A DNA stretch of 64,000 nucleotides, from assembly GCA_963776285.1 (NCBI GenBank), contig CAVZLW010000007.1, forward strand, positions 185,415-249,414. The letters are read 5' to 3'. The notes under the pieces were generated by a model. It made no database searches. It saw only the letters and a list, made by a program, of their open reading frames with translations, and was not told the DNA's origin. Within the stretch, counting starts at the first letter, position 1; every line of letters starts with the position of its first letter. This document shows, one piece after another, positions 19,078 through 63,936 of this stretch. A program made the position numbers and the translations under genes. The DNA is from an uncultured Chloroflexia bacterium (GTDB lineage: Bacteria; Chloroflexota; Limnocylindria; Limnocylindrales; CSP1-4).

Positions 19078-21231
19078 TCAGCCGAGCAGGCCGAGCTCCC
19101 GGCCCCGGGCAACAGCCTCGACCCGGTTCGCGGCCCCGAGCTTGCCCGAGATCGTGTGAAGGTGCGACTTGACGGTGCCCACGGTCACGAAGAGCTCTGC
19201 CGCGACCTGGCTGTTGGACCGCCCGAGGGCGACCAGGCGCAGGACCTCGAGCTCGCGCGCGGTGAGCTCCTCGACGAGAGGGTCGGGACCTTCGCCCTCG
19301 CGGCGACGGGGCTCGCGGCCGGCGTTCGCGAGCAGCGGGCCGATGCGCGCGAGCGTCGCCTGGGCGAGCCGCGCGCTCGGCGCGTCGCCGGCCGCTGTTG
19401 CGAGCTCGAGGGCGCGACGCGCGGCGGCCTCGGCGAGCTGGGGCTGCCCGAGATCGGCCCGGGCGCTGGCCATGACGGCCCAGACCGCTGCGCTGTCGGT
19501 CGCGCCCGACTCCCTCGGGGTCCGCTCGAGCTCCGCCTGGCACAGTCGGGCCGCCCGCTCGGGATCGCCGCGCATGATCGCGATCCTTGCCAGGTCGCCG
19601 ATCGTGCGCCCCACCGCGAGCGCGTTGCCGGCGGCCCGCAGGTCGGGCAGCGCGGCTTCGTAGGCCTCGGCAGCCGCGTCGAGGTCGCCGGCACGGATCA
19701 GCGCCACGCCGAGCAGCGCCGCGGCCGTGCCATGCAGCGTCGCCGCGGCGTCCTCCGGGAGCCCGGCAGGGACGAGGTCGCGCGCGAGGCGCGCCTGCGC
19801 GATCGCGGTGGCGCTGTCCCCTTCGAGCCCGGCGAGCTGCGAGCGGAGGAGAGCGAGCTGGGTGGGAATCGCCGGCCGCATCATCGGACCGCCGTCGTGC
19901 CCGTCGGCGAGCGCGCGTTCGGCGTCGGCGAGCCGCTCGGCGACTCCCTCGGTCTCGCCGGCGAGGAGAAGGCACCAGGCGTACGAGGCGCTGAGCTGGG
20001 CATGGCCGCGGACGACCTCCGGCGGCAGGGCGTCGAGCCACCGCCGGACCGTGCTCAGCTCGCCCGCATTGACGTGCCGTCCCGAGGCGACCGCGACGAT
20101 CCGGCTCGTGCGCTCGAGATCGCCGGACCGCAGCGCGTGGTCGATCGCCTCGTCGTCATCTCCGCGCTCCTCGTGCCAGGCCGACGCTCGCGCGTGCAGC
20201 TCGGCGACCTCGTCGGGACGGAGCGTCCGAAGCCGAGCGCGGAGAATCCCGGCGAAGAGCGCGTGATAGCGGTACCAGCGTCGCTCGTCGTCGAGCGGGG
20301 TGATCAGGAGGTTTGCGCGCTCCAGCCCTTCGAGGCGCGCCTGGCCCCCGGGCTCCCCCGTCACCGCCTCGCACAGCGGACCGCACAGGCGGTCGAGGAT
20401 CGAGGTGCGCAGGAGGAACTCCTGGGAGTCGCGCGGCAACCCGGCCAGGACCTCCTCGACGACGTAGTCGAGGATGTAGCGGTGGCTGGCCCCGAACCGC
20501 CGCACCAGGTCGGCATGATCGGGTCGGCCGCGCAGGGAGACCGCTGCCAGCCGCAGCGCCGCGGCCCACCCCTCGGTTCGGTCGGTGAGCTCGTCGATCT
20601 CCGACGGGGGGAGGTCAACCCCGGACGAGCGGACGAGCGAGGCAGCTTCGGCCGCGGTGAAGCGAAGGTGGTCCGCGCGGACTTCGAGGAGCTCGCCGCG
20701 GGCACGCAGGCGCGCCAGCGGAAGCGGCGGGTCGGCCCGGGTGGCGATCGCGAGACGGGCCCCGGGCGGGAGACGCTCGACGAGCGCCGCGACGAATCCG
20801 TGGATGGCCGCTTCGTCGATCACGTGGTAGTCGTCCAGCACCACGACGGCGCCGCCTCCTGCAGCGGCGAGGCGGTCGAGGACGTGGGCCAGGGCCAGCT
20901 CGGGATCGAAGGACCCGGCGTCGAACGCCCCCGTGTCCGCCCGTTCGCCGGCGAGCTGTGCCGTGGCCGCCGCGAGATAGCGCGCGAACCGGACGATGTC
21001 GTTGTCGCGCGCGTCCAGCGAGACCCACGCGCCCCGGACGTCCGGCTGACCCAGCCAGTCGGCGAGCAGGGTGCTCTTGCCGAACCCGGCGGGCGCCGAG
21101 ACGAGCACGAGTCGAGCGCCGGCGGAGGTGTCGAGCTGCGTCCGCAGCCGCTCGCGGTCGACGTGGCGCGTGCCTCGCGCCTGGACGCCGAGCTTCGTCG
21201 TGATCAGGGCATCTCGCCCTGGCATCTCCAT
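19078..21231 (-). CDS. Large LuxR-family (MalT/LAL-type) regulator: AAA/P-loop NTPase, helical repeats and C-terminal LuxR HTH
   Basis: Walker A LVLVSAPAGFGKSTLL. C-terminal LTARELEVLRLVALGRSNSQVAAELFVTVGTVKSHLHTISGKLG. Confidence 0.85.
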   Translation of the reverse strand: MEMPGRDALITTKLGVQARGTRHVDRERLRTQLDTSAGARLVLVSAPAGFGKSTLLADWLGQPDVRGAWVSLDARDNDIVRFARYLAAATAQLAGERADTGAFDAGSFDPELALAHVLDRLAAAGGGAVVVLDDYHVIDEAAIHGFVAALVERLPPGARLAIATRADPPLPLARLRARGELLEVRADHLRFTAAEAASLVRSSGVDLPPSEIDELTDRTEGWAAALRLAAVSLRGRPDHADLVRRFGASHRYILDYVVEEVLAGLPRDSQEFLLRTSILDRLCGPLCEAVTGEPGGQARLEGLERANLLITPLDDERRWYRYHALFAGILRARLRTLRPDEVAELHARASAWHEERGDDDEAIDHALRSGDLERTSRIVAVASGRHVNAGELSTVRRWLDALPPEVVRGHAQLSASYAWCLLLAGETEGVAERLADAERALADGHDGGPMMRPAIPTQLALLRSQLAGLEGDSATAIAQARLARDLVPAGLPEDAAATLHGTAAALLGVALIRAGDLDAAAEAYEAALPDLRAAGNALAVGRTIGDLARIAIMRGDPERAARLCQAELERTPRESGATDSAAVWAVMASARADLGQPQLAEAAARRALELATAAGDAPSARLAQATLARIGPLLANAGREPRRREGEGPDPLVEELTARELEVLRLVALGRSNSQVAAELFVTVGTVKSHLHTISGKLGAANRVEAVARGRELGLLG

Positions 21232-21469
21232 CCGGCGATCGGCCTCAGCTACGGGCGTCGGGACGGCACAGGCCTCCGGAAGTGTCCCGGCGGCGAACGC
21301 GTTCGCCCAGAGCCGTTCGACGCGACTTCACCCGAACCTTTGCCCAGGCGGGCCTCTTCGACGTTTCAACCACCCGGTCCATCCGCGGATAGATGTGCCG
21401 GCCGTTGGTTGAGCCCCACGCTCCGTGATGAGATCCGGCAGCACAAGACCGGAGCATGCGAGGTCCCCG

Positions 21470-36954: not shown

Positions 36955-39855
36955 TCACCGCCAGTTCGGGTCGAGGTTCCTGCCACCCCGGGTGGGCATC
37001 AGGTCGCGCGCACCCGTCCCGTCGGCGTTGACCACCCACAGATGGTACCCGTCGCCCGTGCTCGCCCGGTAGAAGGCGATCTGCCTGCCGTCGGGCGACC
37101 AGACCGGATTGCCGTCCTGGACCGCGTTGTGGGTCAGCCGTCTCGTGACCCTCTTCGTCGCCACGTCGAGCAGGTACACGTCGTTGCTGGCGTCGTCGAT
37201 GCCGTCACCCCGGACGAAGGCGATCGTTCGCTGGTCCGGGGACCAGGCGGGGTTTCGCTCGGAGGCGGGGCTGGTCGTCAGCCGCTCGTACCCGCTGCCA
37301 TCCGGCCGGACGATCGCGACGTCGTAGCCGGAGGTGCCTTTCGGATCGAGGTTCGCGGTGAGGGCCAGCATCGTCCCGTCCGGCGACCAGGCCGGCGACC
37401 GGAGCCGGTATCCGTGGACGACCTCGTGCGCGCCGGATCCATCGCTCCGGATCACCCAGATGGCCGAATCTTTGCTCGGCGGGACGGTTCGGACGAAGGC
37501 GATCCAGCCATCCTTCGACCAGGCCGGGAAGTAGTCGTCGGCCCGTCCACTCGTCAGCGGCCGCTCGGAGCCGTCGGCTTCGCGAATGTAGATGTCGCGC
37601 GTCCCGTTCACCTTGCGGGTGAAGGCGATCTGCCGGTAATCAGGCGACCAGGTCGGGAAGGTGTCGTCGACGCCGTTGTGCGTGAGCTGCGTGGTCTTCC
37701 CCGAAGCCGGGTCGAGAAGATACAGCTCGTTGTCGGTCTGGTTGGACCCGGGCTCCAGGTTGCTGTAGAAGAGGATGCCGGGCGAGACGGGCGCAGCCGG
37801 CGCGGGGGCGGCCGAACCGGGAGCCGCGGACCCGGGGGCTGTCGAACCGGGGGCGACTGATCGGGGACTGCTGCCGCTCGACGCGGCGGTCGTCGGCGAG
37901 TAGTCGCTCCGGGCCTCCCTGCCGGACGTGCGGCCGACCGCCGCCACCTCGACGCGCGTCCGATCCCCGATCTCGAGCGCCGCCCGGATCGAGCCATCGG
38001 CGGCGGCAACCACCGTCCCGGCCGGGTTCGCGTCGAGGGAGAGGTCGACATCCTCACCGCGGGTGAAGCCCGTCCCGGTCACCAGGACGGCCCTGCCCGG
38101 CAAGGTGCTCGCCGCGGAGACGGCGATCGAGGCGCCCGTGTCCGTCGGAAGGACGGCACGCCCGATGATGAGCAGGACGACGACGGCCGCGAGGCCCAGG
38201 ACGATGCGCCGCCATCGGAATCGCGCAGGCAGGGGTGACGCCTGCCCTGGGAGCGGGCGGGCCGCCGGCGCCGGTTCGGGCGCCCGCATGGTCAGTGGGC
38301 CGATCGCCGGCGCCGGTTCGGGCGCCCGAGTGGTCTGAATTGGCTGTCGATCCTCGTCGCCATCCGCCCCGGCTGCGCCCAGCCGATCCAACCCGGCGGC
38401 CGCGGTGGTCCCCGCGAGGGCAGGCCCGGGGAGCGCGTCCTCGGCCTCCTTCGGCCCGGGGAGCGCCGCCTCGGCAGAGCCGCCCGCGGGTGGCAGGGCC
38501 GGGATGGGGACGCCCTCCTCGGTCATGCTGGCGGCCGCGCCCGCGGCGACCGCAGCCACGGGAAGGACACCTTCGGGCGGCGAGGTCCCGGGGAGGGCGC
38601 CGGGCTGCGCGTCGGTCACCTGGAGCTGGCCGTCGGGCTGGCTGGTGTCGGCCGGGACGGTCGCGGCCGCAGCGGCGGCGGCTCCCGCCGGGACCGGGTC
38701 TGGGCTCGACGCCACCTTGGGCGGCAGGTCCTGCGGGTCGCGCCGCGGGATCGCGGCGGCGTTCGCCACGTCGAAGAGCTGGCCGTCGGCCACCCGCATG
38801 AACAGGACGGGCGTTCCCCACTCGACGTCGTTCTGGTCGGCGTAGATGGCAAGGCGCGCCTCCGCAACCGCCGAATTGACGGGCCGACCCTCGGCCAGCA
38901 TCGAGTAGAACTCCCCCGCGAAGAGGACCGCCGCACGGTCCGTGATCTCGAACTGCATCCCGATCACCGCGGGGATCTCGCGCTGGACCAGGCTCGTGGC
39001 GACCCCGGAGAACGGGTCGTCCACCGAGTTGCGGGCGCCCTCGCACGAGTTGAGCAGGACGAGTCGCAGCGACACCTTGTCGTGGAGGATGGTCGCGATC
39101 TGGTCCCCGCTCACCGGCCGGCCCCGACCGGCCTCGTCCTCGAAGAGGAGTGCTCCCTCGCCGCTCGCGTCGTCGAATCCGCCGTGGCCGATGTAGTGGA
39201 TGATGTGGTACTCGTCGGACCTGAGCGTGCGGGCCAGGGCCAGCAGGCTGGCCTCCTCGAGCCAGTCGACGGAGACGGCCTTCGCATCGATCACGGGGCG
39301 GAGCGCCTCCTCCAGCCGGGTCCGCTCCAGTCCCGCGTCGAGCTGCCCGGCGTCGGAAGGTGCGCTGACGATGCCAAGGATCCGGAGCGGGAGCTCCACC
39401 TGGAGCGGCCGGCGGGGCTTCGGGACGTCGAGGTAGCGGACAACAGGGGTCCATGTCGAGATCGACAGGAAGTCGGGCTCGTCGAAGAGGTACTCCCATG
39501 GGATCCCACCCAGCTCGGGCACCTCGCTCAGCGACAGGGTGACCCGCAGCCCCTGCCCCGCGGTCCGGGCCTCGCCGAGGCATGTGCGATAGAGCTCGTC
39601 GACCTTGCCCGAGATGAGGGCCGAGAACAGCCGGCCGCCGAATGCTCGCGCAAGCCCCATCTCGGGCGACTCGATGCGACGGACGCCGCGGCGAGTTCGT
39701 CCGACCTTCAGGACGAAGTTCTCGAGCTCCGTCGCGGTGAACGGCGCGGCGAACGTGCCGGGCGCCTCACCCCCGAGCCCGCTGGCCGCGACTCGGTAGG
39801 ACCCCGGGGTCGCTCCCCGCTCGATGCGCAGGCGAAACTCCGCGTAGGTCGTCAT
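36955..39855 (-). CDS. CHAT-domain (caspase-like peptidase) protein with Pro/Ala-rich linker, single TM helix and C-terminal TolB-like (PD40) beta-propeller
   Basis: The N-terminal region (YAEFRLRIERGATPGSYRVAASGLGGEAPGTF) is typical of standalone CHAT proteins. The CHAT His/Cys dyad is HIIHYIGHGGFD...LVLLNSCEGAR. A TM helix (RFRWRRIVLGLAAVVVLLIIG) is preceded by a basic patch, which places CHAT in the cytoplasm. There are five or more PD40 repeats (FPTWSPDYRQIAF, FPAWSKDGWIAF, SPAWSPDGTMLAL, NPAWSPDQRTIAF, NPVWSPDGRQIAF). Confidence 0.8.
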   Translation of the reverse strand: MTTYAEFRLRIERGATPGSYRVAASGLGGEAPGTFAAPFTATELENFVLKVGRTRRGVRRIESPEMGLARAFGGRLFSALISGKVDELYRTCLGEARTAGQGLRVTLSLSEVPELGGIPWEYLFDEPDFLSISTWTPVVRYLDVPKPRRPLQVELPLRILGIVSAPSDAGQLDAGLERTRLEEALRPVIDAKAVSVDWLEEASLLALARTLRSDEYHIIHYIGHGGFDDASGEGALLFEDEAGRGRPVSGDQIATILHDKVSLRLVLLNSCEGARNSVDDPFSGVATSLVQREIPAVIGMQFEITDRAAVLFAGEFYSMLAEGRPVNSAVAEARLAIYADQNDVEWGTPVLFMRVADGQLFDVANAAAIPRRDPQDLPPKVASSPDPVPAGAAAAAAATVPADTSQPDGQLQVTDAQPGALPGTSPPEGVLPVAAVAAGAAASMTEEGVPIPALPPAGGSAEAALPGPKEAEDALPGPALAGTTAAAGLDRLGAAGADGDEDRQPIQTTRAPEPAPAIGPLTMRAPEPAPAARPLPGQASPLPARFRWRRIVLGLAAVVVLLIIGRAVLPTDTGASIAVSAASTLPGRAVLVTGTGFTRGEDVDLSLDANPAGTVVAAADGSIRAALEIGDRTRVEVAAVGRTSGREARSDYSPTTAASSGSSPRSVAPGSTAPGSAAPGSAAPAPAAPVSPGILFYSNLEPGSNQTDNELYLLDPASGKTTQLTHNGVDDTFPTWSPDYRQIAFTRKVNGTRDIYIREADGSERPLTSGRADDYFPAWSKDGWIAFVRTVPPSKDSAIWVIRSDGSGAHEVVHGYRLRSPAWSPDGTMLALTANLDPKGTSGYDVAIVRPDGSGYERLTTSPASERNPAWSPDQRTIAFVRGDGIDDASNDVYLLDVATKRVTRRLTHNAVQDGNPVWSPDGRQIAFYRASTGDGYHLWVVNADGTGARDLMPTRGGRNLDPNWR

Positions 39856-41416: not shown

Positions 41417-41691
41417 GGGAACCCCCCTCTCGGCGCTCGAACGCACCCTTCGGGCGGGTCGGTCTCGCCATTGGCCCGGGCGCGACGATCTGGGCGACCG
41501 CATGGGGACGCCGCGCCGGTAGGAGTCGGGACTCCCGTGCCTCCCACCCGATCGACGAATTGTGCGCTCGCAGCCCTGGAATGGGTAGCCCCAAGCTGGC
41601 CCGCATCGCCCGGCGGCCGCGAGGCGCCCTCGGCTGCCGCGTCCCCGGCGGCCGGACGGAGCGCTCCGGGCGCCGGCCCGAGATTGCCTGC

Positions 41692-43982: not shown

Positions 43983-44249
43983 TCCCCGCCACGAGCAGCC
44001 GTAGGCCGGAGCGACTGCCACGCAGAAGTGAACGGCGACGGCCGACCGGCCGCCGTGCTCGACCCGAGACGGGTGGGATGGCGAGCGGGCTTCAACGGGC
44101 CGTCTCGCGGGTAGCCCATCGTCTTCTTGACCGCACCGCGATGCGCGCCTTAGCGTTGTCGTGCGCAGAGGTCGACGGGGTCGATGCGCCGCCGGCAGGG
44201 CGGCGAGGATGCGCGACGGATGTCGCGCGGTCGAGGGATGGGGGCAGCG

Positions 44250-47168
44250 ATGCGCATCGTCGTCACGCACGGACGCGACCAGGCATTCCAGATTCCCGAG
44301 ACGATGGGTCGTGCGTGGGCGGATGCCCTCCGCCACGGTCTCCGCTCGGCCGGCTACGCGCGGCCGGACGACCTCGACGTGCGGTTCGCGTTCTACGGCG
44401 ACCTCTGGAGGCCCGACCGCCGCGAGCCGGCCGACGACGAGCGCGGCGGTGGCGTCGAGCCTGACGCCCTGAGGGCGCCGCCGACCGCCATCCAGGCGGC
44501 GATCGGCGCCGAGCTCCTCGGACCGCGCCCGGACGCCGAGCGGATCGAGTGGCAGCGCCTGGGACAGGTGGTCCGCGCGCTCGACGACGTGTTCGGTGTC
44601 GGGGAAGTGCTGCTCACGCAGTTCATGGGTGACCTGGACGAGTACTTCCGGGACGCGGACCTGCGGGCGACGGTGCTCGAGCGGGTGGCCCAGGTCTGCC
44701 AGGCGGACGCTGAGCCGGTGCTCCTCCTCGGCCACAGCATGGGAAGCATCGTGGCCTATGACCTCCTCGCGACGCGCGGGGCGCGACCGCTCGGGGTCGC
44801 CGGACTCGTGACGTTCGGCTCCCCGCTCGGCATGAAGAGCCTTCATCGGCACGTGGATGACCTTCACCCCGGAACGCCGTTCCCGGCAGGTCTCGCCGCC
44901 TGGACCAATGTCTTCAATGCGGAGGACTTCGCGACCGTCGTCCCTTCCCTGGCGCCCCTGTTCCCGGGCGTCGGCACGCGGCATGTGAAGGACGTGGGGG
45001 CCGAGGGTCGGGAGCCGTCCTTGCTCTCGCCCGGTGAGGGCCACGACCCGATCGTCTACCTCAGCTCGATGGCACTGGGCCGCGCAGTCCGCGAGATGCT
45101 CGAGCCGGTTCTTGCCGCGCCCGTCGTAGCGCCGCCGCCGCCGGCCGTACCCGCCCGATCGATCCCGCGGACGGGCGGTCCCGTTGCGACCCCGTCGGCG
45201 GGCGCGCCGGCACCGCAGCCGACCAGGGCGATGCCGCCGCAGGCCGCGCGCCCGGTCCAGGCCGAGCCGCCGCGGCCGACCAGGGCGATGCCGCCGCCGC
45301 CGGCCACTCGTCCGGTCCAGGCCGAGCCGCCGCCGCCGAACTTGCATGGGACGCCTCCGCGGCAGTTCGCGCGTCCGGTCCAGGCCGAGCCGCCGCGGCC
45401 GACCAGGGCAATGCCGCCGCTGCAGGTCGAACCGCCGATAGAGGCTGTCGCCGCGCCGCCGCCCGTGGCCGCGGGCGGAGACCGCGGGGGCCTGGCCGCC
45501 TCGCCCGGCGGCTCCGGCGGCGCCCCGGCACCCGTCCTGGTGCGCGGTAGCGACGAAGCGCTGGCCGTCCCGGGGACCGCCACCGCCCCCGCGACGAAGA
45601 CCGTCGAGCGGGTCGCGTCGGCAGACTTCCCGCCCGTGGTCCTGCCCGGCAGCACCCACGACCTGCTCTTCGCCATCGGCGCCGCGGCCGCCTTCGCTCG
45701 CGCGGCCGACGTGGCGCTCGTCGTGCCGGCAGAGCAGCGGACGCTGGACCTTCGCGTCGGCGTCTACGCCCAGGACTTCGACATCCGGGTCGGCGACGAG
45801 GATCTCACCTGGCAGGCCATCACGATCAACCTGGATGACGCGTCGAGGAGCGTCTCCCGGACGTTCGCGCTGACGGCGCACGATGTCACCGAGAAGCGCG
45901 AGACGACGATCTACCTGACCGTCTACCGCGACAGCCTGCCCGTCGCCCAGGTGGCCCTCGTGACCACGATCGACCCGGCCTTCCAGCCGCTCCGGGCGTC
46001 GATCAGCCTGAACCTGGACGGGGCCGAGGATCCCGACTTCGTGCTGGTGATCATGGACCGCGGCAACCCGAAGGGCGAGGGGCCCTTCGAGATGTTCGTG
46101 AGCCAGAAGGGCGAGTTCGTCAACCGGCCGCTGGGCACGATGAACGTGACGATCAACGCCTGGAAGTACGCCCAGGACCGCCTCGCGGGCTTCAAGAGCG
46201 TGCGCGACGGAGCGACGGACAGGATGCGGTTCAACCGGGCAGAGAGCTTGGGACTCGCGCTCTGGCGGGACCTGCCGCCCGACTTCCAGCGCTTCTACTG
46301 GGACGAGCTCCACGGGCACGACTGGTCCATCGCCATCTACTCGCAGGAGCCGTACATCCCGTGGGAGCTGGTCCGCCCCCAGAAGGAGAGCGGGGAGCAG
46401 GCCGACTTCCTCGGCATCTCGTTCAGCATGGCCCGCTGGAAGCAGGCCGTCCGCTTCCCGGATCCGCTCGTGGTCTCGGGGTTCTCCGTCATCGCACCCG
46501 TGTACACCGAAGTGTCGGGCGCTCCGCCGCTGCCCGGCGCGCAGGAGGAGGCCGACGCGCTGGTCGCGACGTTCGGGGCCACGCGGATCGCCGGCGAGCT
46601 CGCCGCCGTGACCGAGCTCCTGGAGTCGACGCGGGGCGTGCAGCTCATCCATTTCGCGGGGCACGGCGATTTCGACCCCGAAGCCGACACCGACACGGTG
46701 ATCAAGCTCGCCGACCAGTCGCTGGTCCCGGAGGACATCTACCGGGCGAACCTCGGCCGGGCCTCGCGGCCCCTCGTGTTCCTCAACGCCTGCGAAGTTG
46801 GCGAGGAGGGCTGGTCGCTCACGCGGATCGGCGGCTGGGCCGAGGCGTTCACCGACGTCGGATTCTCCGGCTTCGTCGGGCCGTACTGGGCGGTCAACGA
46901 CACGGTCGCGCGCAAGGCGGCGCTCCTCTTCTACGGCGCGCTGCGCGACGGGGCGTCCGTCGGCGAGGCCCTCCAGGCGATCCGTCGCCAGTTCTACGAC
47001 GAGCCGGACGAGAAGTACCGGGGCCACCCGAGCTGGCTCGCCTACACGCTCCACTGCCAGCCGAACGTGCACATCACGATCCCGGCCGCCGGGGTCGCGA
47101 GCAATCCGCCAGCGCCAGGCACCTCCGGGACAGGCGATCCCCTCGCCGCGCCCGGCGCGAAGCCCTGA
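44250..47168 (+). CDS. Multidomain protein: N-terminal alpha/beta-hydrolase (GHSMG serine esterase/lipase-like), Pro-rich tandem-repeat linker, central unknown domain, C-terminal CHAT (caspase-like) domain
   Basis: MRIVVTHG... start with GGGGG RBS. Nucleophile elbow is VLLLGHSMGSIVAYDLL. About 4 tandem ~20-aa repeats (PTRAMPPQAARPVQAEPPR). The CHAT His/Cys dyad is LIHFAGHGDFD...LVFLNACEVGEEG. Confidence 0.75.
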   Translation: MRIVVTHGRDQAFQIPETMGRAWADALRHGLRSAGYARPDDLDVRFAFYGDLWRPDRREPADDERGGGVEPDALRAPPTAIQAAIGAELLGPRPDAERIEWQRLGQVVRALDDVFGVGEVLLTQFMGDLDEYFRDADLRATVLERVAQVCQADAEPVLLLGHSMGSIVAYDLLATRGARPLGVAGLVTFGSPLGMKSLHRHVDDLHPGTPFPAGLAAWTNVFNAEDFATVVPSLAPLFPGVGTRHVKDVGAEGREPSLLSPGEGHDPIVYLSSMALGRAVREMLEPVLAAPVVAPPPPAVPARSIPRTGGPVATPSAGAPAPQPTRAMPPQAARPVQAEPPRPTRAMPPPPATRPVQAEPPPPNLHGTPPRQFARPVQAEPPRPTRAMPPLQVEPPIEAVAAPPPVAAGGDRGGLAASPGGSGGAPAPVLVRGSDEALAVPGTATAPATKTVERVASADFPPVVLPGSTHDLLFAIGAAAAFARAADVALVVPAEQRTLDLRVGVYAQDFDIRVGDEDLTWQAITINLDDASRSVSRTFALTAHDVTEKRETTIYLTVYRDSLPVAQVALVTTIDPAFQPLRASISLNLDGAEDPDFVLVIMDRGNPKGEGPFEMFVSQKGEFVNRPLGTMNVTINAWKYAQDRLAGFKSVRDGATDRMRFNRAESLGLALWRDLPPDFQRFYWDELHGHDWSIAIYSQEPYIPWELVRPQKESGEQADFLGISFSMARWKQAVRFPDPLVVSGFSVIAPVYTEVSGAPPLPGAQEEADALVATFGATRIAGELAAVTELLESTRGVQLIHFAGHGDFDPEADTDTVIKLADQSLVPEDIYRANLGRASRPLVFLNACEVGEEGWSLTRIGGWAEAFTDVGFSGFVGPYWAVNDTVARKAALLFYGALRDGASVGEALQAIRRQFYDEPDEKYRGHPSWLAYTLHCQPNVHITIPAAGVASNPPAPGTSGTGDPLAAPGAKP
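45216..45440 (+). repeat. Tandem ~60-bp coding repeats (about 3.5 copies) encoding the Pro-rich linker of the hydrolase-CHAT protein
   Basis: Repeated ccgaccagggcgatgccgccg...cgtccggtccaggccgagccgccgcg units are visible directly. They translate to PTRAMPP(Q/P)xxRPVQAEPPR. Confidence 0.7.
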
Positions 47169-61909: not shown

Positions 61910-63517
61910 ATGGGAGGGACGCGCTCGACAACGGCGAAACGCTCCGGGACGGCGGGAGCCGGCAGCCGGGCCGCCCGCCCGGCATCGCCGAACGGCGGCG
62001 CCCGCTCGGGGGCGACGCCGGAGTCGATGGCCCTCCAGGGCGGCGGCGTGCCGGAGGAGGCGATCGCCGGCATCCTGCAGTCCAGTGCCATCGAGCAGGA
62101 GGTGCTGGAGCGCCTCCAGGGAGCTGCCGGCAATCGCGCGGTTGCCCAGATCGTGCAGCGCCAGGGCACCACGCCGGCGCCGGCGGCCGGTGTCACGGCC
62201 GCCTCCCCATTCGGACCTGTCCCGGCTTCGACCACCGCGGCCGTGCCCGCGGACCTGGTGGCCTTCCGGGCGGCAGGACCGTACCCGGCAACCGACGCCG
62301 GCACCACCATCCTCCCGAGCACGGGCCGGGGCGGGTTCCAGGCCCGCTACGACGCGACCGCGATGGTGCTCACGATCACGATGAACGTCGGCATTAACTT
62401 CATCGACGGCATGAGCGAGACCGGCGGCGTGGCGGTCGCAGCGGACCCCAGCCTCAACGGCGCGGCGAACACCATCAACCGCCTCCCGAGCGAACAGCGG
62501 ACGGCGGCCATCAACCAGTGGAAGTGGAGCGGCGACCAGGAGACCTGGATGGGGGACTTCCGCTCGCAGGTCCAGGGCGCCTGGGGGACGGCCGGCCACG
62601 GGCTCCAGTTCCAGAGCAGCCATGCCGGCTGGGAAGCCCAGCTGGCGAGCGTCAACGTCGTGGTCAACACGCAGGACAAGAGCCTCACCGGCCCGCCGCC
62701 CGCCGGCGCCTCCTCGATCCCGTCCACGGCCGGCCCGACCCACTGCACGGCCAACGTCTACAAGACGCCCCCCGGCAACAACGACTTCGGCGCCGGCGTC
62801 CTGCCCGGGTCGCTGACGAGCGCCACCGACCAGACGCTCGACATCGGGAGCAGCCAGACGGTGACGCACAGCCATCTGCTGAACCAGCGCGTCTTCTTCG
62901 ATCGCGGGTCGGTCGAGCTGAACGCCGCGGCGCAGTCCGACCTGCTGGCGATCATCAACAGCTTCCAGACGCCCGCCGGCGGCGCCGGGACCTCCATCAA
63001 CATCGTCGGCCACGCCGACACCACCGGCGGCGGCACGACCGCGGGCGATGCCCGAAACCAGCGCATCTCCGAGCAGCGAGCCCAGGCCGTGGCCGACTTC
63101 CTGAAGGCCACGCGCAGCGGCGGGGGCACGCTGTCGAATGCGGCAACCCGGATCGCGACCACGACCGGCGTCGGCAGCGCGGAGGGCGGCACGAACGCGG
63201 CGGCGCGGCGCGTCGACGTCAACTTCGCCGGTGGCGGCCAGCAGAACGTGGCCGCCCACGAGTTCGGGCACATGCTCGGGATGCGCGACGAGTACGCGGT
63301 CGACCCGGGCGGGGTGATCAGCGGGTCGGCGGGCACGACGGGCACTGCGACCGACCAGGACCCCTCGGTGCAGGCCACGGGCCTGGGACGGTCGATCAAG
63401 GAGAACAACGACAACATCATGTCGCTGGGCGGGACCGTGCGGGCGCCGCACATGGTCAGCTTCATGGAAGCCCTCCGAACGGTGTCCGGCTCGAACGAAT
63501 GGCGGCTCAAGCGGTGA
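61910..63517 (+). CDS. Multidomain protein with DUF4157-type N-terminal 'LQxAAGNxAV' motif, OmpA-like peptidoglycan-binding domain and C-terminal HExxH zinc-metallopeptidase-like domain
   Basis: N-terminal motif LERLQGAAGNRAVAQIVQRQ. OmpA-like region FFDRGSVELNAAAQSDLLAIIN...INIVGHADTTGG...NQRISEQRAQAVADFL...ARRVDVNF. Zincin motif VAAHEFGHMLGMRDEY, followed by a possible Met-turn NIMSLGG. Confidence 0.65.
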   Translation: MGGTRSTTAKRSGTAGAGSRAARPASPNGGARSGATPESMALQGGGVPEEAIAGILQSSAIEQEVLERLQGAAGNRAVAQIVQRQGTTPAPAAGVTAASPFGPVPASTTAAVPADLVAFRAAGPYPATDAGTTILPSTGRGGFQARYDATAMVLTITMNVGINFIDGMSETGGVAVAADPSLNGAANTINRLPSEQRTAAINQWKWSGDQETWMGDFRSQVQGAWGTAGHGLQFQSSHAGWEAQLASVNVVVNTQDKSLTGPPPAGASSIPSTAGPTHCTANVYKTPPGNNDFGAGVLPGSLTSATDQTLDIGSSQTVTHSHLLNQRVFFDRGSVELNAAAQSDLLAIINSFQTPAGGAGTSINIVGHADTTGGGTTAGDARNQRISEQRAQAVADFLKATRSGGGTLSNAATRIATTTGVGSAEGGTNAAARRVDVNFAGGGQQNVAAHEFGHMLGMRDEYAVDPGGVISGSAGTTGTATDQDPSVQATGLGRSIKENNDNIMSLGGTVRAPHMVSFMEALRTVSGSNEWRLKR

Positions 63518-63936
63518 GCGCACGTCCCGGTGAGCCGCGGGAGGCGGTGCCGGTGGTCGAGTATCTCGTCCGGGCCCGGAGCACGTGGGGCACGCGCCTG
63601 TACGTCGACGGCCGCACCGAGGAGTGGCAGGACCCGGCCGGTTGGCGGCCGCTGGTGAAGGTCGCGCCGTCCGAGGTGGCGGCGTTCGTCGAGCTCGCCC
63701 GCGGCCGCGGATTCCTGGATCTGCCGGAGGTCCTGGCCGGTGGTGAGTCCGTAGACGACGGCTCCGCGGTCTCGTGGTCGATCACGGTGGGCGGCAGGCG
63801 CCATCGCGTCACCGCCCGGGCGACCGGGTCCAGCCTGGACCCCGTCCTGCGGGCCCTCAACGACGCGCTCCAGCTGATGATCGGCCGCGCGCTTGCCGTC
63901 GCGGCCGACGAGGCCGGGCACGGCCCCGGGACGTAG
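63514..63936 (+). CDS. Hypothetical 140-aa protein translationally coupled (GTGA) to the upstream HExxH protein; possible cognate partner/immunity protein
   Basis: GTG start overlaps the upstream TGA. Composition is balanced with W/Y/F/E. No family recognised. Confidence 0.45.
   Translation: MSARPGEPREAVPVVEYLVRARSTWGTRLYVDGRTEEWQDPAGWRPLVKVAPSEVAAFVELARGRGFLDLPEVLAGGESVDDGSAVSWSITVGGRRHRVTARATGSSLDPVLRALNDALQLMIGRALAVAADEAGHGPGT

Follow-up and report, generated by a model that had tools for sequence, protein, structure and literature searches.

What is a putative zinc peptidase with a motif typical of injection-system cargo doing in a stretch of Chloroflexota DNA in which no injection-system genes are detected, and why does a small gene appear to overlap its stop codon? 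The question is raised by two overlapping open reading frames, ORF A and ORF B, near the right end of the window, i.e. the whole 64-kb stretch analysed here (contig CAVZLW010000007.1, uncultured Chloroflexia bacterium). With moderate confidence, drawing on sequence comparison, a structural model and analogy with described systems, we interpret the pair as an orphan effector metallopeptidase of the type delivered by contractile injection systems, together with its cognate inhibitor or immunity protein. The elements of the gene pair are as follows.

61910..63517, plus strand: ORF A, 535 amino acids (aa), intact, from ATG 61910 to TGA 63517; predicted leaderless metallopeptidase with a metzincin-like domain split by an OmpA-like domain.
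63514..63936, plus strand: ORF B, partner protein of 140 aa (127 aa if started at GTG 63553); probable cognate inhibitor or immunity protein.
63514..63517, plus strand: start/stop overlap GTGA of ORF A and ORF B, seen in the sequence, with GTGA or ATGA at the same place in L002-L008 and L018.
63539..63555, plus strand: alternative start of ORF B, GGGAGG (63539-63544) followed by the in-frame GTG 63553 at which the public gene call begins.

The substitution pattern indicates that both are real genes under purifying selection. Against five relatives, ORF A gave dN/dS values of 0.18-0.45 and ORF B values of 0.23-0.58, and the amino-acid change in ORF B was about 1.1 to 3 times that in ORF A. The MGG... 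start of ORF A is kept in its closest relatives (L002-L006). ORF B is read in the +1 frame and can start at GTG 63514, which overlaps the TGA at 63515-63517, as had been noticed in the first-pass annotation of this DNA. The base preceding TGA is G or A in all nine close relatives (L002-L008, L018), so that GTGA or ATGA is always formed. Five of the nine have A there, although the G+C content is about 72% and third codon positions in these genomes are about 90% G or C, and the overlapping codon can therefore be argued to be a selected start. The start/stop coupling is thus well supported by comparison although not proven; the public call P0046 (127 aa) begins at GTG 63553, 39 nucleotides (nt) downstream of the conserved overlap. 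An ATG at 63499, 15 nt upstream, was rejected as the start of ORF B because it arises from conserved Glu-Trp codons of ORF A and the conserved start position is that of GTGA/ATGA. The G+C content is uniformly about 72% throughout the window with no compositional break at the locus, and scans for promoters and terminators gave nothing useful in this high-GC sequence.

ORF A can be divided into the following parts.

61910..62236, plus strand: N-terminal region, residues 1-109, predicted to be disordered except for one helix.
62105..62161, plus strand: conserved motif LERLQGAAGNRAVAQIVQR, residues 66-84, consensus [LM]QxxxGNRAVxx[IV][VI]QR.
62237..62869, plus strand: N-terminal peptidase subdomain, residues 110-320, predicted beta-sheet plus helices, with invariant W225 and W241.
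62882..63229, plus strand: OmpA-like peptidoglycan-binding domain, residues 325-440, inserted ahead of the active-site helix, with the core GHAD...NQRISEQRAQAV.
63257..63295, plus strand: predicted zinc-binding and catalytic motif HEFGHMLGMRDEY, containing H450, E451, H454, D460 and Y462; HEFGH corresponds to residues 450-454.
63419..63421, plus strand: Met504 in ENNDNIMSLG, candidate Met-turn, placed by alignment and not by coordinates.

The HExxHxxGxx(H/D) zinc motif of metzincins is present in ORF A as HEFGHMLGMRD. Conservation was counted in an alignment of 45 sequences, the identical protein P0001 and 44 homologues, in all of which H450, E451, H454, D460 and Y462 are invariant within HEFGHMxGxxDxY. 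Met504 is methionine in 43 of the 45 and the following S505 is kept in 44. Among metzincins, the pattern HExxHxxGxxD with Asp as the third ligand is known from snapalysin, in which a Met further downstream is retained as well (PMC3890501). The Pfam scan of ORF A gave a single match above threshold, OmpA (PF00691; residues 329-424, E 3.5e-9); both a profile match above the curated threshold and an OmpA-like fold were found, in accordance with the OmpA-like module proposed before. The remaining Pfam matches were weak and at the level of HExxH (M12B, M6 and M10), NCBIfam yielded only sub-threshold matches to OmpA-type models and the M6 metalloprotease domain, and the catalytic domain is covered by no model of either collection. 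PF02031 (snapalysin M7) gave no match in ORF A at E <= 1, and the snapalysin chains of the PDB matched only at E 0.3, over the motif helix.

The AlphaFold2 model of ORF A, built on the alignment, has a mean predicted confidence (pLDDT) of 82.5, with residues 110-535 mostly above 90. Metzincins were retrieved as fold matches over 114-152 aligned residues: ulilysin (8.1), atrolysin C (7.9), ADAMTS-5 (7.8), mirolysin (7.8), astacin (7.4) and snapalysin (7.2; 114 of its 134 residues). Because only about 95 residues lie C-terminal to the OmpA domain, the matched region must take in residues 110-320. In two relatives without the OmpA domain (L064:9044-10264 and L067:8699-10273), the N-terminal subdomain, recognizable by GxFxAxYxP... 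and two conserved Trp, runs straight into AAHEFGHMLGLGDEY. The fold match and the contiguity of these relatives across the insertion point together point to ORF A as a metzincin-like peptidase, as predicted from sequence and model, whose domain of about 300 residues is split by an OmpA-like domain immediately ahead of the active-site helix. The first-pass annotation had described a short C-terminal HEFGH zincin preceded by about 200 aa of separate unknown sequence. The motif is indeed found at residues 450-454, but the module is not short, since the preceding approximately 210 aa belong to the catalytic domain as the N-terminal half of the metzincin-like peptidase. Within the insert, Asp370 lies in GHAD and Arg390 in QRA; Arg390 is invariant in the family, and residue 370 is Asp in 27 of the 45 homologues and Ser or Asn in the others. 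We take Asp370 and Arg390 to be the diaminopimelate-binding pair of OmpA-like domains, by which binding would be predicted. Neither ORF A nor its homologues showed a signal peptide, a lipobox or a transmembrane segment when judged by eye.

The N-terminal region of ORF A (residues 1-109) is polar, with a high content of Gly, Ala and Arg. Its pLDDT is below 50 at residues 1-60 and 83-101, and the lone helix between them (60-83) carries the motif. Among 35 homologues, the motif columns are kept in 25-32 sequences (Q70 in 28, G74 in 32, N75 in 28, V78 in 27, Q83 in 30 and R84 in 32) and the rest of the N-terminal region is unconserved. When all retrieved loci were searched in six frames, the motif appeared not only close to the N-terminus of family members but also in other ORFs nearby. 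In five of nine such nearby ORFs, a strong match to PF13699 (DUF4157, also named eCIS_core after the extracellular contractile injection systems, eCIS; E 1e-28 to 1e-32) follows 40-190 residues downstream. The motif stands upstream of the core in 12 of the 68 ORFs with a DUF4157 core in these loci, compared with about 0.5 expected from the background rate. These 12 come from loci of Chloroflexota, Acidobacteriota and Verrucomicrobiota and none from those of Bacteroidota or Deinococcales. In addition, PF13699 is fused ahead of the same peptidase module in P0039, P0044, L026, L031 and L034-L040, Deinococcales loci among them. The catalytic N-subdomain was found in 92 cluster representatives among 1.84 billion, and eCIS_core is carried by 15 of the 92. 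The association of the LQxAAGNxAV-type motif with DUF4157-type effectors, on which the first-pass annotation had relied, is thereby borne out; its statement that no DUF4157 core follows the motif in ORF A also holds, PF13699 giving no match there at E <= 1, and for the same reason ORF A itself cannot be called a DUF4157 protein. Going by these profile searches, ORF A has the region that precedes DUF4157 but not the DUF4157 domain.

Three further ORFs, L009:13712-16006 (+), L032:561-1460 (-) and L032:5052-6095 (-), carry the motif without DUF4157 and without the peptidase domain, and one of them ends in a long apolipoprotein-like helical C-terminus. They may represent further types of cargo using the same N-terminal tag. 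Four Bacteroidota loci (L043, L044, L053 and L056) contain arrays of three to six consecutive same-strand ORFs with a DUF4157 core beside a WHD-AAA-like gene, and the LQxxxGNxAV motif was found in none of these arrays.

A homologue of ORF B lies directly downstream in 40 of the 41 related loci, as ORF B itself does in the window. Its start either overlaps the stop codon or follows it by at most about 40 nt, often with a Shine-Dalgarno-like sequence ahead. A single profile matches every copy, five of which had been left out when it was made. Lack of conservation of the downstream ORF in relatives had been named beforehand as an observation that would speak against a functional pair; the ORF proved to be conserved in these 40 loci, and a toxin-immunity or enzyme-inhibitor arrangement, as proposed at that time, appears to fit the comparison best. 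DUF6438 (PF20033) was matched by 11 of 22 partner homologues, of which only the best, with 31.3 bits, exceeded the cut-off of 30, and Emfourin (PF20242) by four of the 22, all below threshold (best 20.9 bits against 27, E 4.8e-4); all these matches cover one region. The search of PDB sequence profiles with the partner alignment gave only matches at chance level. The predicted fold of ORF B is Mago-nashi-like. Emfourin (PDB 6zyg) was not recovered by Foldseek for the partner, so the Emfourin lead from Pfam has to be downgraded and an emfourin-like fold is not indicated. In the literature searched, no paper mentioned DUF6438 and none described the architecture of ORF A.

As judged by hydropathy and by eye, all 12 partners encoded in diderm lineages (cyanobacterial, Deinococcales, myxobacterial and Oligoflexia loci) have an N-terminal hydrophobic leader or a lipobox, whereas the 28 partners of Chloroflexota, Thermoleophilia or Actinomycetota type and that of the window have neither. 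The exported partners of the diderm loci parallel the immunity proteins that are directed to the envelope against metallopeptidase effectors acting in the periplasm (PMC6899460). The partner domain (about 140 aa) is tandemly doubled in a single polypeptide of 246-314 aa in five Deinococcales loci (L034, L036, L037, L039 and L040), and a tandem duplication is also found in L028 and L032 (Thermoleophilia/Actinomycetota).

The link to injection systems comes from the more distant relatives. Profile searches detected injection-system genes no more than 10 kb from the family gene in 11 of 41 full-length related loci. The gene for P0029 (48% identity) follows directly after CIS_tube, Phage_GPD/Phage_base_V, GPW_gp25, Tail_P2_I, DUF4159 and WHD-AAA genes and is itself followed by the partner gene and a DUF4157 gene. 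Pfam confirmed WHD and AAA upstream of family members in L010, L012, L026 and L034, Pvc16_N in L026 and CIS_tube in L010, and in several related loci the family gene stands directly behind the WHD-AAA ATPase gene. A delivery context, which the first-pass annotation had left open, can now be inferred for the relatives from these 11 loci. The CIS_tube protein encoded at L010:19554-20234 (+) has a C-terminal LysM domain. Locus L011 (labelled Acidobacteriota) is nearly identical in sequence and gene order to L010, and L024 (labelled Pleurocapsa) to L021, L022 and L041, all Chloroflexota loci; the taxon labels of these two metagenome-assembled genomes (MAGs) may reflect mis-binning.

Combining these observations, we suggest that ORF A is made in the cytoplasm without a signal peptide and acts as a zinc metallopeptidase by means of its HExxHxxGxxD ligands and conserved Met. 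The OmpA-like insert would dock it on peptidoglycan, and because the insert would hold the enzyme there, its substrates are likely to be wall-associated proteins of a target cell or the stem peptides of that cell's peptidoglycan. The disordered N-terminus with its conserved helix is most likely a loading handle for the WHD-AAA loader, since the motif is common to DUF4157-type eCIS cargo and the genes of relatives lie directly behind the WHD-AAA ATPase. DUF4157 is known to mark eCIS toxins (PMC8213781, PMC11297309), and in AlgoCIS an N-terminal disordered region and an AAA protein are needed for cargo loading (bioRxiv 10.64898/2026.05.27.728243). ORF B would be translated in step with ORF A, and its most likely role is to bind the peptidase and block it, so that the producer and its kin are protected; effector-immunity pairs with a metallopeptidase and envelope-targeted immunity proteins have been described (PMC6899460).

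Several observations weigh against this interpretation. The first-pass annotation had seen no injection-system genes before the window ends, and profile searches of the whole 64-kb window likewise detected none for tube, spike, gp25, baseplate, WHD-AAA or DUF4157 proteins. Twenty of the larger ORFs of the window are ordinary (photolyase, transporters, hydrolases, CHAT proteins, DUF2252, SulP and cupin), and the gene just past its end is apparently of the 2-phosphosulpholactate phosphatase type (2-ph_phosp), as deduced from a 2.3-kb contig carrying ORF B. The closest relatives (55-81% identity) likewise lie in differing housekeeping contexts; the close clade comprises L001-L008, L018, L083 and L084, from MAGs labelled Limnocylindrales and Chloroflexia. 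By comparison, 88% of known eCIS toxins are encoded no more than 10 genes from the operon (PMC11297309); such proximity to an eCIS operon, within about 10 genes, is lacking in the window and present in the 11 related loci mentioned above. Moreover, ORF B of the window has no Pfam match (nor one in NCBIfam), and for a peptidoglycan target an exported partner would be more suitable than a leaderless, presumably cytoplasmic one, as in the window and the Chloroflexota-type loci. A cytoplasmic ORF B could guard the producer until loading takes place; alternatively, in monoderm-type cells the target itself could be cytoplasmic. The pair in this genome and its close clade would either depend on an injection system whose genes lie elsewhere or now be independent of one. 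A tblastn search with residues 110-535 of ORF A against plasmid and phage collections gave no match.

The orphan position of the two genes, which all close relatives share with the window, would also agree with a self-contained intracellular protease-inhibitor pair, no injection system being involved in this lineage and the protease being held inactive by its inhibitor until lysis, stress or some other release. The missing export signal of ORF B in the window, the weak profile similarity of the relatives' partners to Emfourin and DUF6438, and the protealysin-emfourin operon with its identical gene layout and leaderless protease (PMC9505478) are all consistent with this. We nevertheless regard it as unlikely, although it is the alternative that survives best: the N-terminal motif is under selection and common to injection-system cargo, distant members occupy the cargo position of injection-system clusters, the wall-binding OmpA-like domain would have no ligand in the cytoplasm, and the Emfourin fold match is poor.

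A second alternative sees in ORF B a chaperone or loading adaptor for ORF A instead of an inhibitor or immunity protein. Strict co-occurrence, start/stop coupling, the cytoplasmic partner of the Chloroflexota-type loci and the Mago-like fold, a protein-binding platform, would all agree with such a role, and accessory proteins are to be expected, as DUF4157 has been proposed to be an in-trans chaperone (PMC11297309). The leaders and lipoboxes of the cyanobacterial, Deinococcales, myxobacterial and Oligoflexia partners, however, place these proteins outside the cytoplasm, where no loading occurs, which argues against a purely cytoplasmic chaperone; the faster amino-acid evolution of ORF B is also typical of immunity proteins (PMC6899460). 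We therefore consider this role of ORF B rather improbable.

It is even more doubtful that ORF A is a housekeeping endopeptidase that remodels the wall of the producer while tethered to the peptidoglycan there, and that ORF B regulates it. The peptidoglycan-binding domain, a composition equal to that of the rest of the window and the housekeeping neighbourhood, with partial synteny to the 2-ph_phosp gene in the window, L001 and L083, could be explained in this way. The absence, as judged by eye, of any export or anchoring signal from ORF A and its homologues speaks against it, and such a function is hard to reconcile with the rarity of the family, its patchy distribution across phyla and the many members fused or adjacent to eCIS_core and injection-system genes. 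Finally, the first-pass view of ORF A as a DUF4157-family protein in which the usual zincin core is replaced and which ends in a short separate HEFGH zincin, which the association of the motif with DUF4157 proteins might favour, is hardly tenable, as PF13699 finds no match and the HEFGH helix is part of a metzincin-like domain of about 300 residues that includes residues 110-320.

Returning to the effector-immunity interpretation, its parts can be combined into a broader proposal, which we make only tentatively: that ORF A represents an undescribed metzincin family with an OmpA insert that serves as wall-targeting injection cargo in Chloroflexota, cyanobacteria and Deinococcota, that the partner with the Mago fold is a new class of metalloprotease inhibitor, and that the [LM]QxxxGNxAVxxxxQR helix is the recognition sequence for one lineage of WHD-AAA loader ATPases. 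How contractile injection systems choose their cargo is still an open question, and N-terminal loading regions are described in the literature as disordered and unconserved between systems. In one group of systems, by contrast, cargo genes with no other relationship have a short conserved motif in common, which is retained even in an orphan gene; as a testable candidate for a recognition tag, it is the most useful lead of the analysis. If the proposal is true, the motif helix would be a concrete and transplantable loading tag for one WHD-AAA lineage, and such a tag would explain the recruitment of an effector whose gene, as here, lies far from those of the machine. ORF A would also represent a peptidase family not yet modelled, with an unusual domain-in-domain layout, and its partner may be a new inhibitor family, both from the poorly studied Chloroflexota of soil and water. 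Should the pair be merely an ordinary effector-immunity module, the value of the analysis would lie mainly in better annotation.

Some other elements of the window may be mentioned. A gene for an AAA_16-TPR-GerE (LuxR-type) regulator (19078..21231, minus strand) lies 40 kb from ORF A and ORF B, and a similar AAA_16/GerE gene (21036..21461) is found in L083 at 10 kb from the homologue; GerE regulators have been reported near eCIS operons (PMC8213781). Two large CHAT-domain proteins, one of 966 aa with PD40 beta-propeller repeats and the other of 994 aa, are encoded about 4 kb apart on opposite strands (36955..39855, minus, and 44184..47168, plus). Between their genes, a match to the Rfam c-di-GMP-II-GAG riboswitch aptamer (RF03169) was found at 41448..41553 on the minus strand, with 41.7 bits against a gathering threshold of 40 (E 9.7e-5).

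Among the known systems closest to the module are eCIS toxins carrying DUF4157, such as the AlgoCIS cargo Cgo1 (PMC8894135; bioRxiv 10.64898/2026.05.27.728243; PMC8213781), with which ORF A, compared by described features, shares a leaderless sequence, a disordered N-terminus and a C-terminal predicted metalloprotease. The relatives of ORF A are also encoded just after the injection-system AAA ATPase and beside DUF4157 genes, and some are direct DUF4157 fusions. In contrast to these toxins, ORF A lacks the DUF4157 core, the 62 kb upstream of it contain no injection-system genes, and it possesses an OmpA-like insertion and a dedicated partner gene.

With snapalysin (M7; PDB 1c7k, 1kuh and 4hx3), ORF A has in common HExxHxxGxxDxY, Asp as the third ligand and a conserved downstream Met, although this Met lies 44 residues after the Asp in ORF A and about 10 in snapalysin (PMC3890501). 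The snapalysin profile finds no match in ORF A, and in the relative L067 only one below threshold (E 0.027); the N-terminal subdomain of ORF A is much larger and interrupted from the active-site helix by the OmpA insertion, and snapalysin is secreted via a signal peptide. The protealysin-emfourin operon of Serratia proteamaculans (PMC9505478) is similar in that a leaderless metalloprotease is followed by a small protein inhibitor in the same operon, and relatives of ORF B match the Emfourin model below threshold. Protealysin, however, is a thermolysin-like Glu-zincin of family M4, not a metzincin, and ORF B of the window itself does not match Emfourin.

In the type VI pairs Tpe-Tpi (VgrG2b C-terminal domain and PA0261; PMC6899460), compared here in organization and not in sequence, the gene of a metallopeptidase toxin is likewise always followed by a small partner gene. 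A signal peptide, a lipobox or a transmembrane helix can serve to bring the immunity protein to the envelope, and the pair can sit apart from the core genes of the secretion system; the differences lie in the delivery machine and in the partner, which is predicted to be cytoplasmic in the lineage of the window. The module thus resembles an eCIS toxin with its immunity gene, Tpe-Tpi and protealysin-emfourin, yet it belongs neither to DUF4157 nor to snapalysin (M7) nor, at the level of the fold, to Emfourin.

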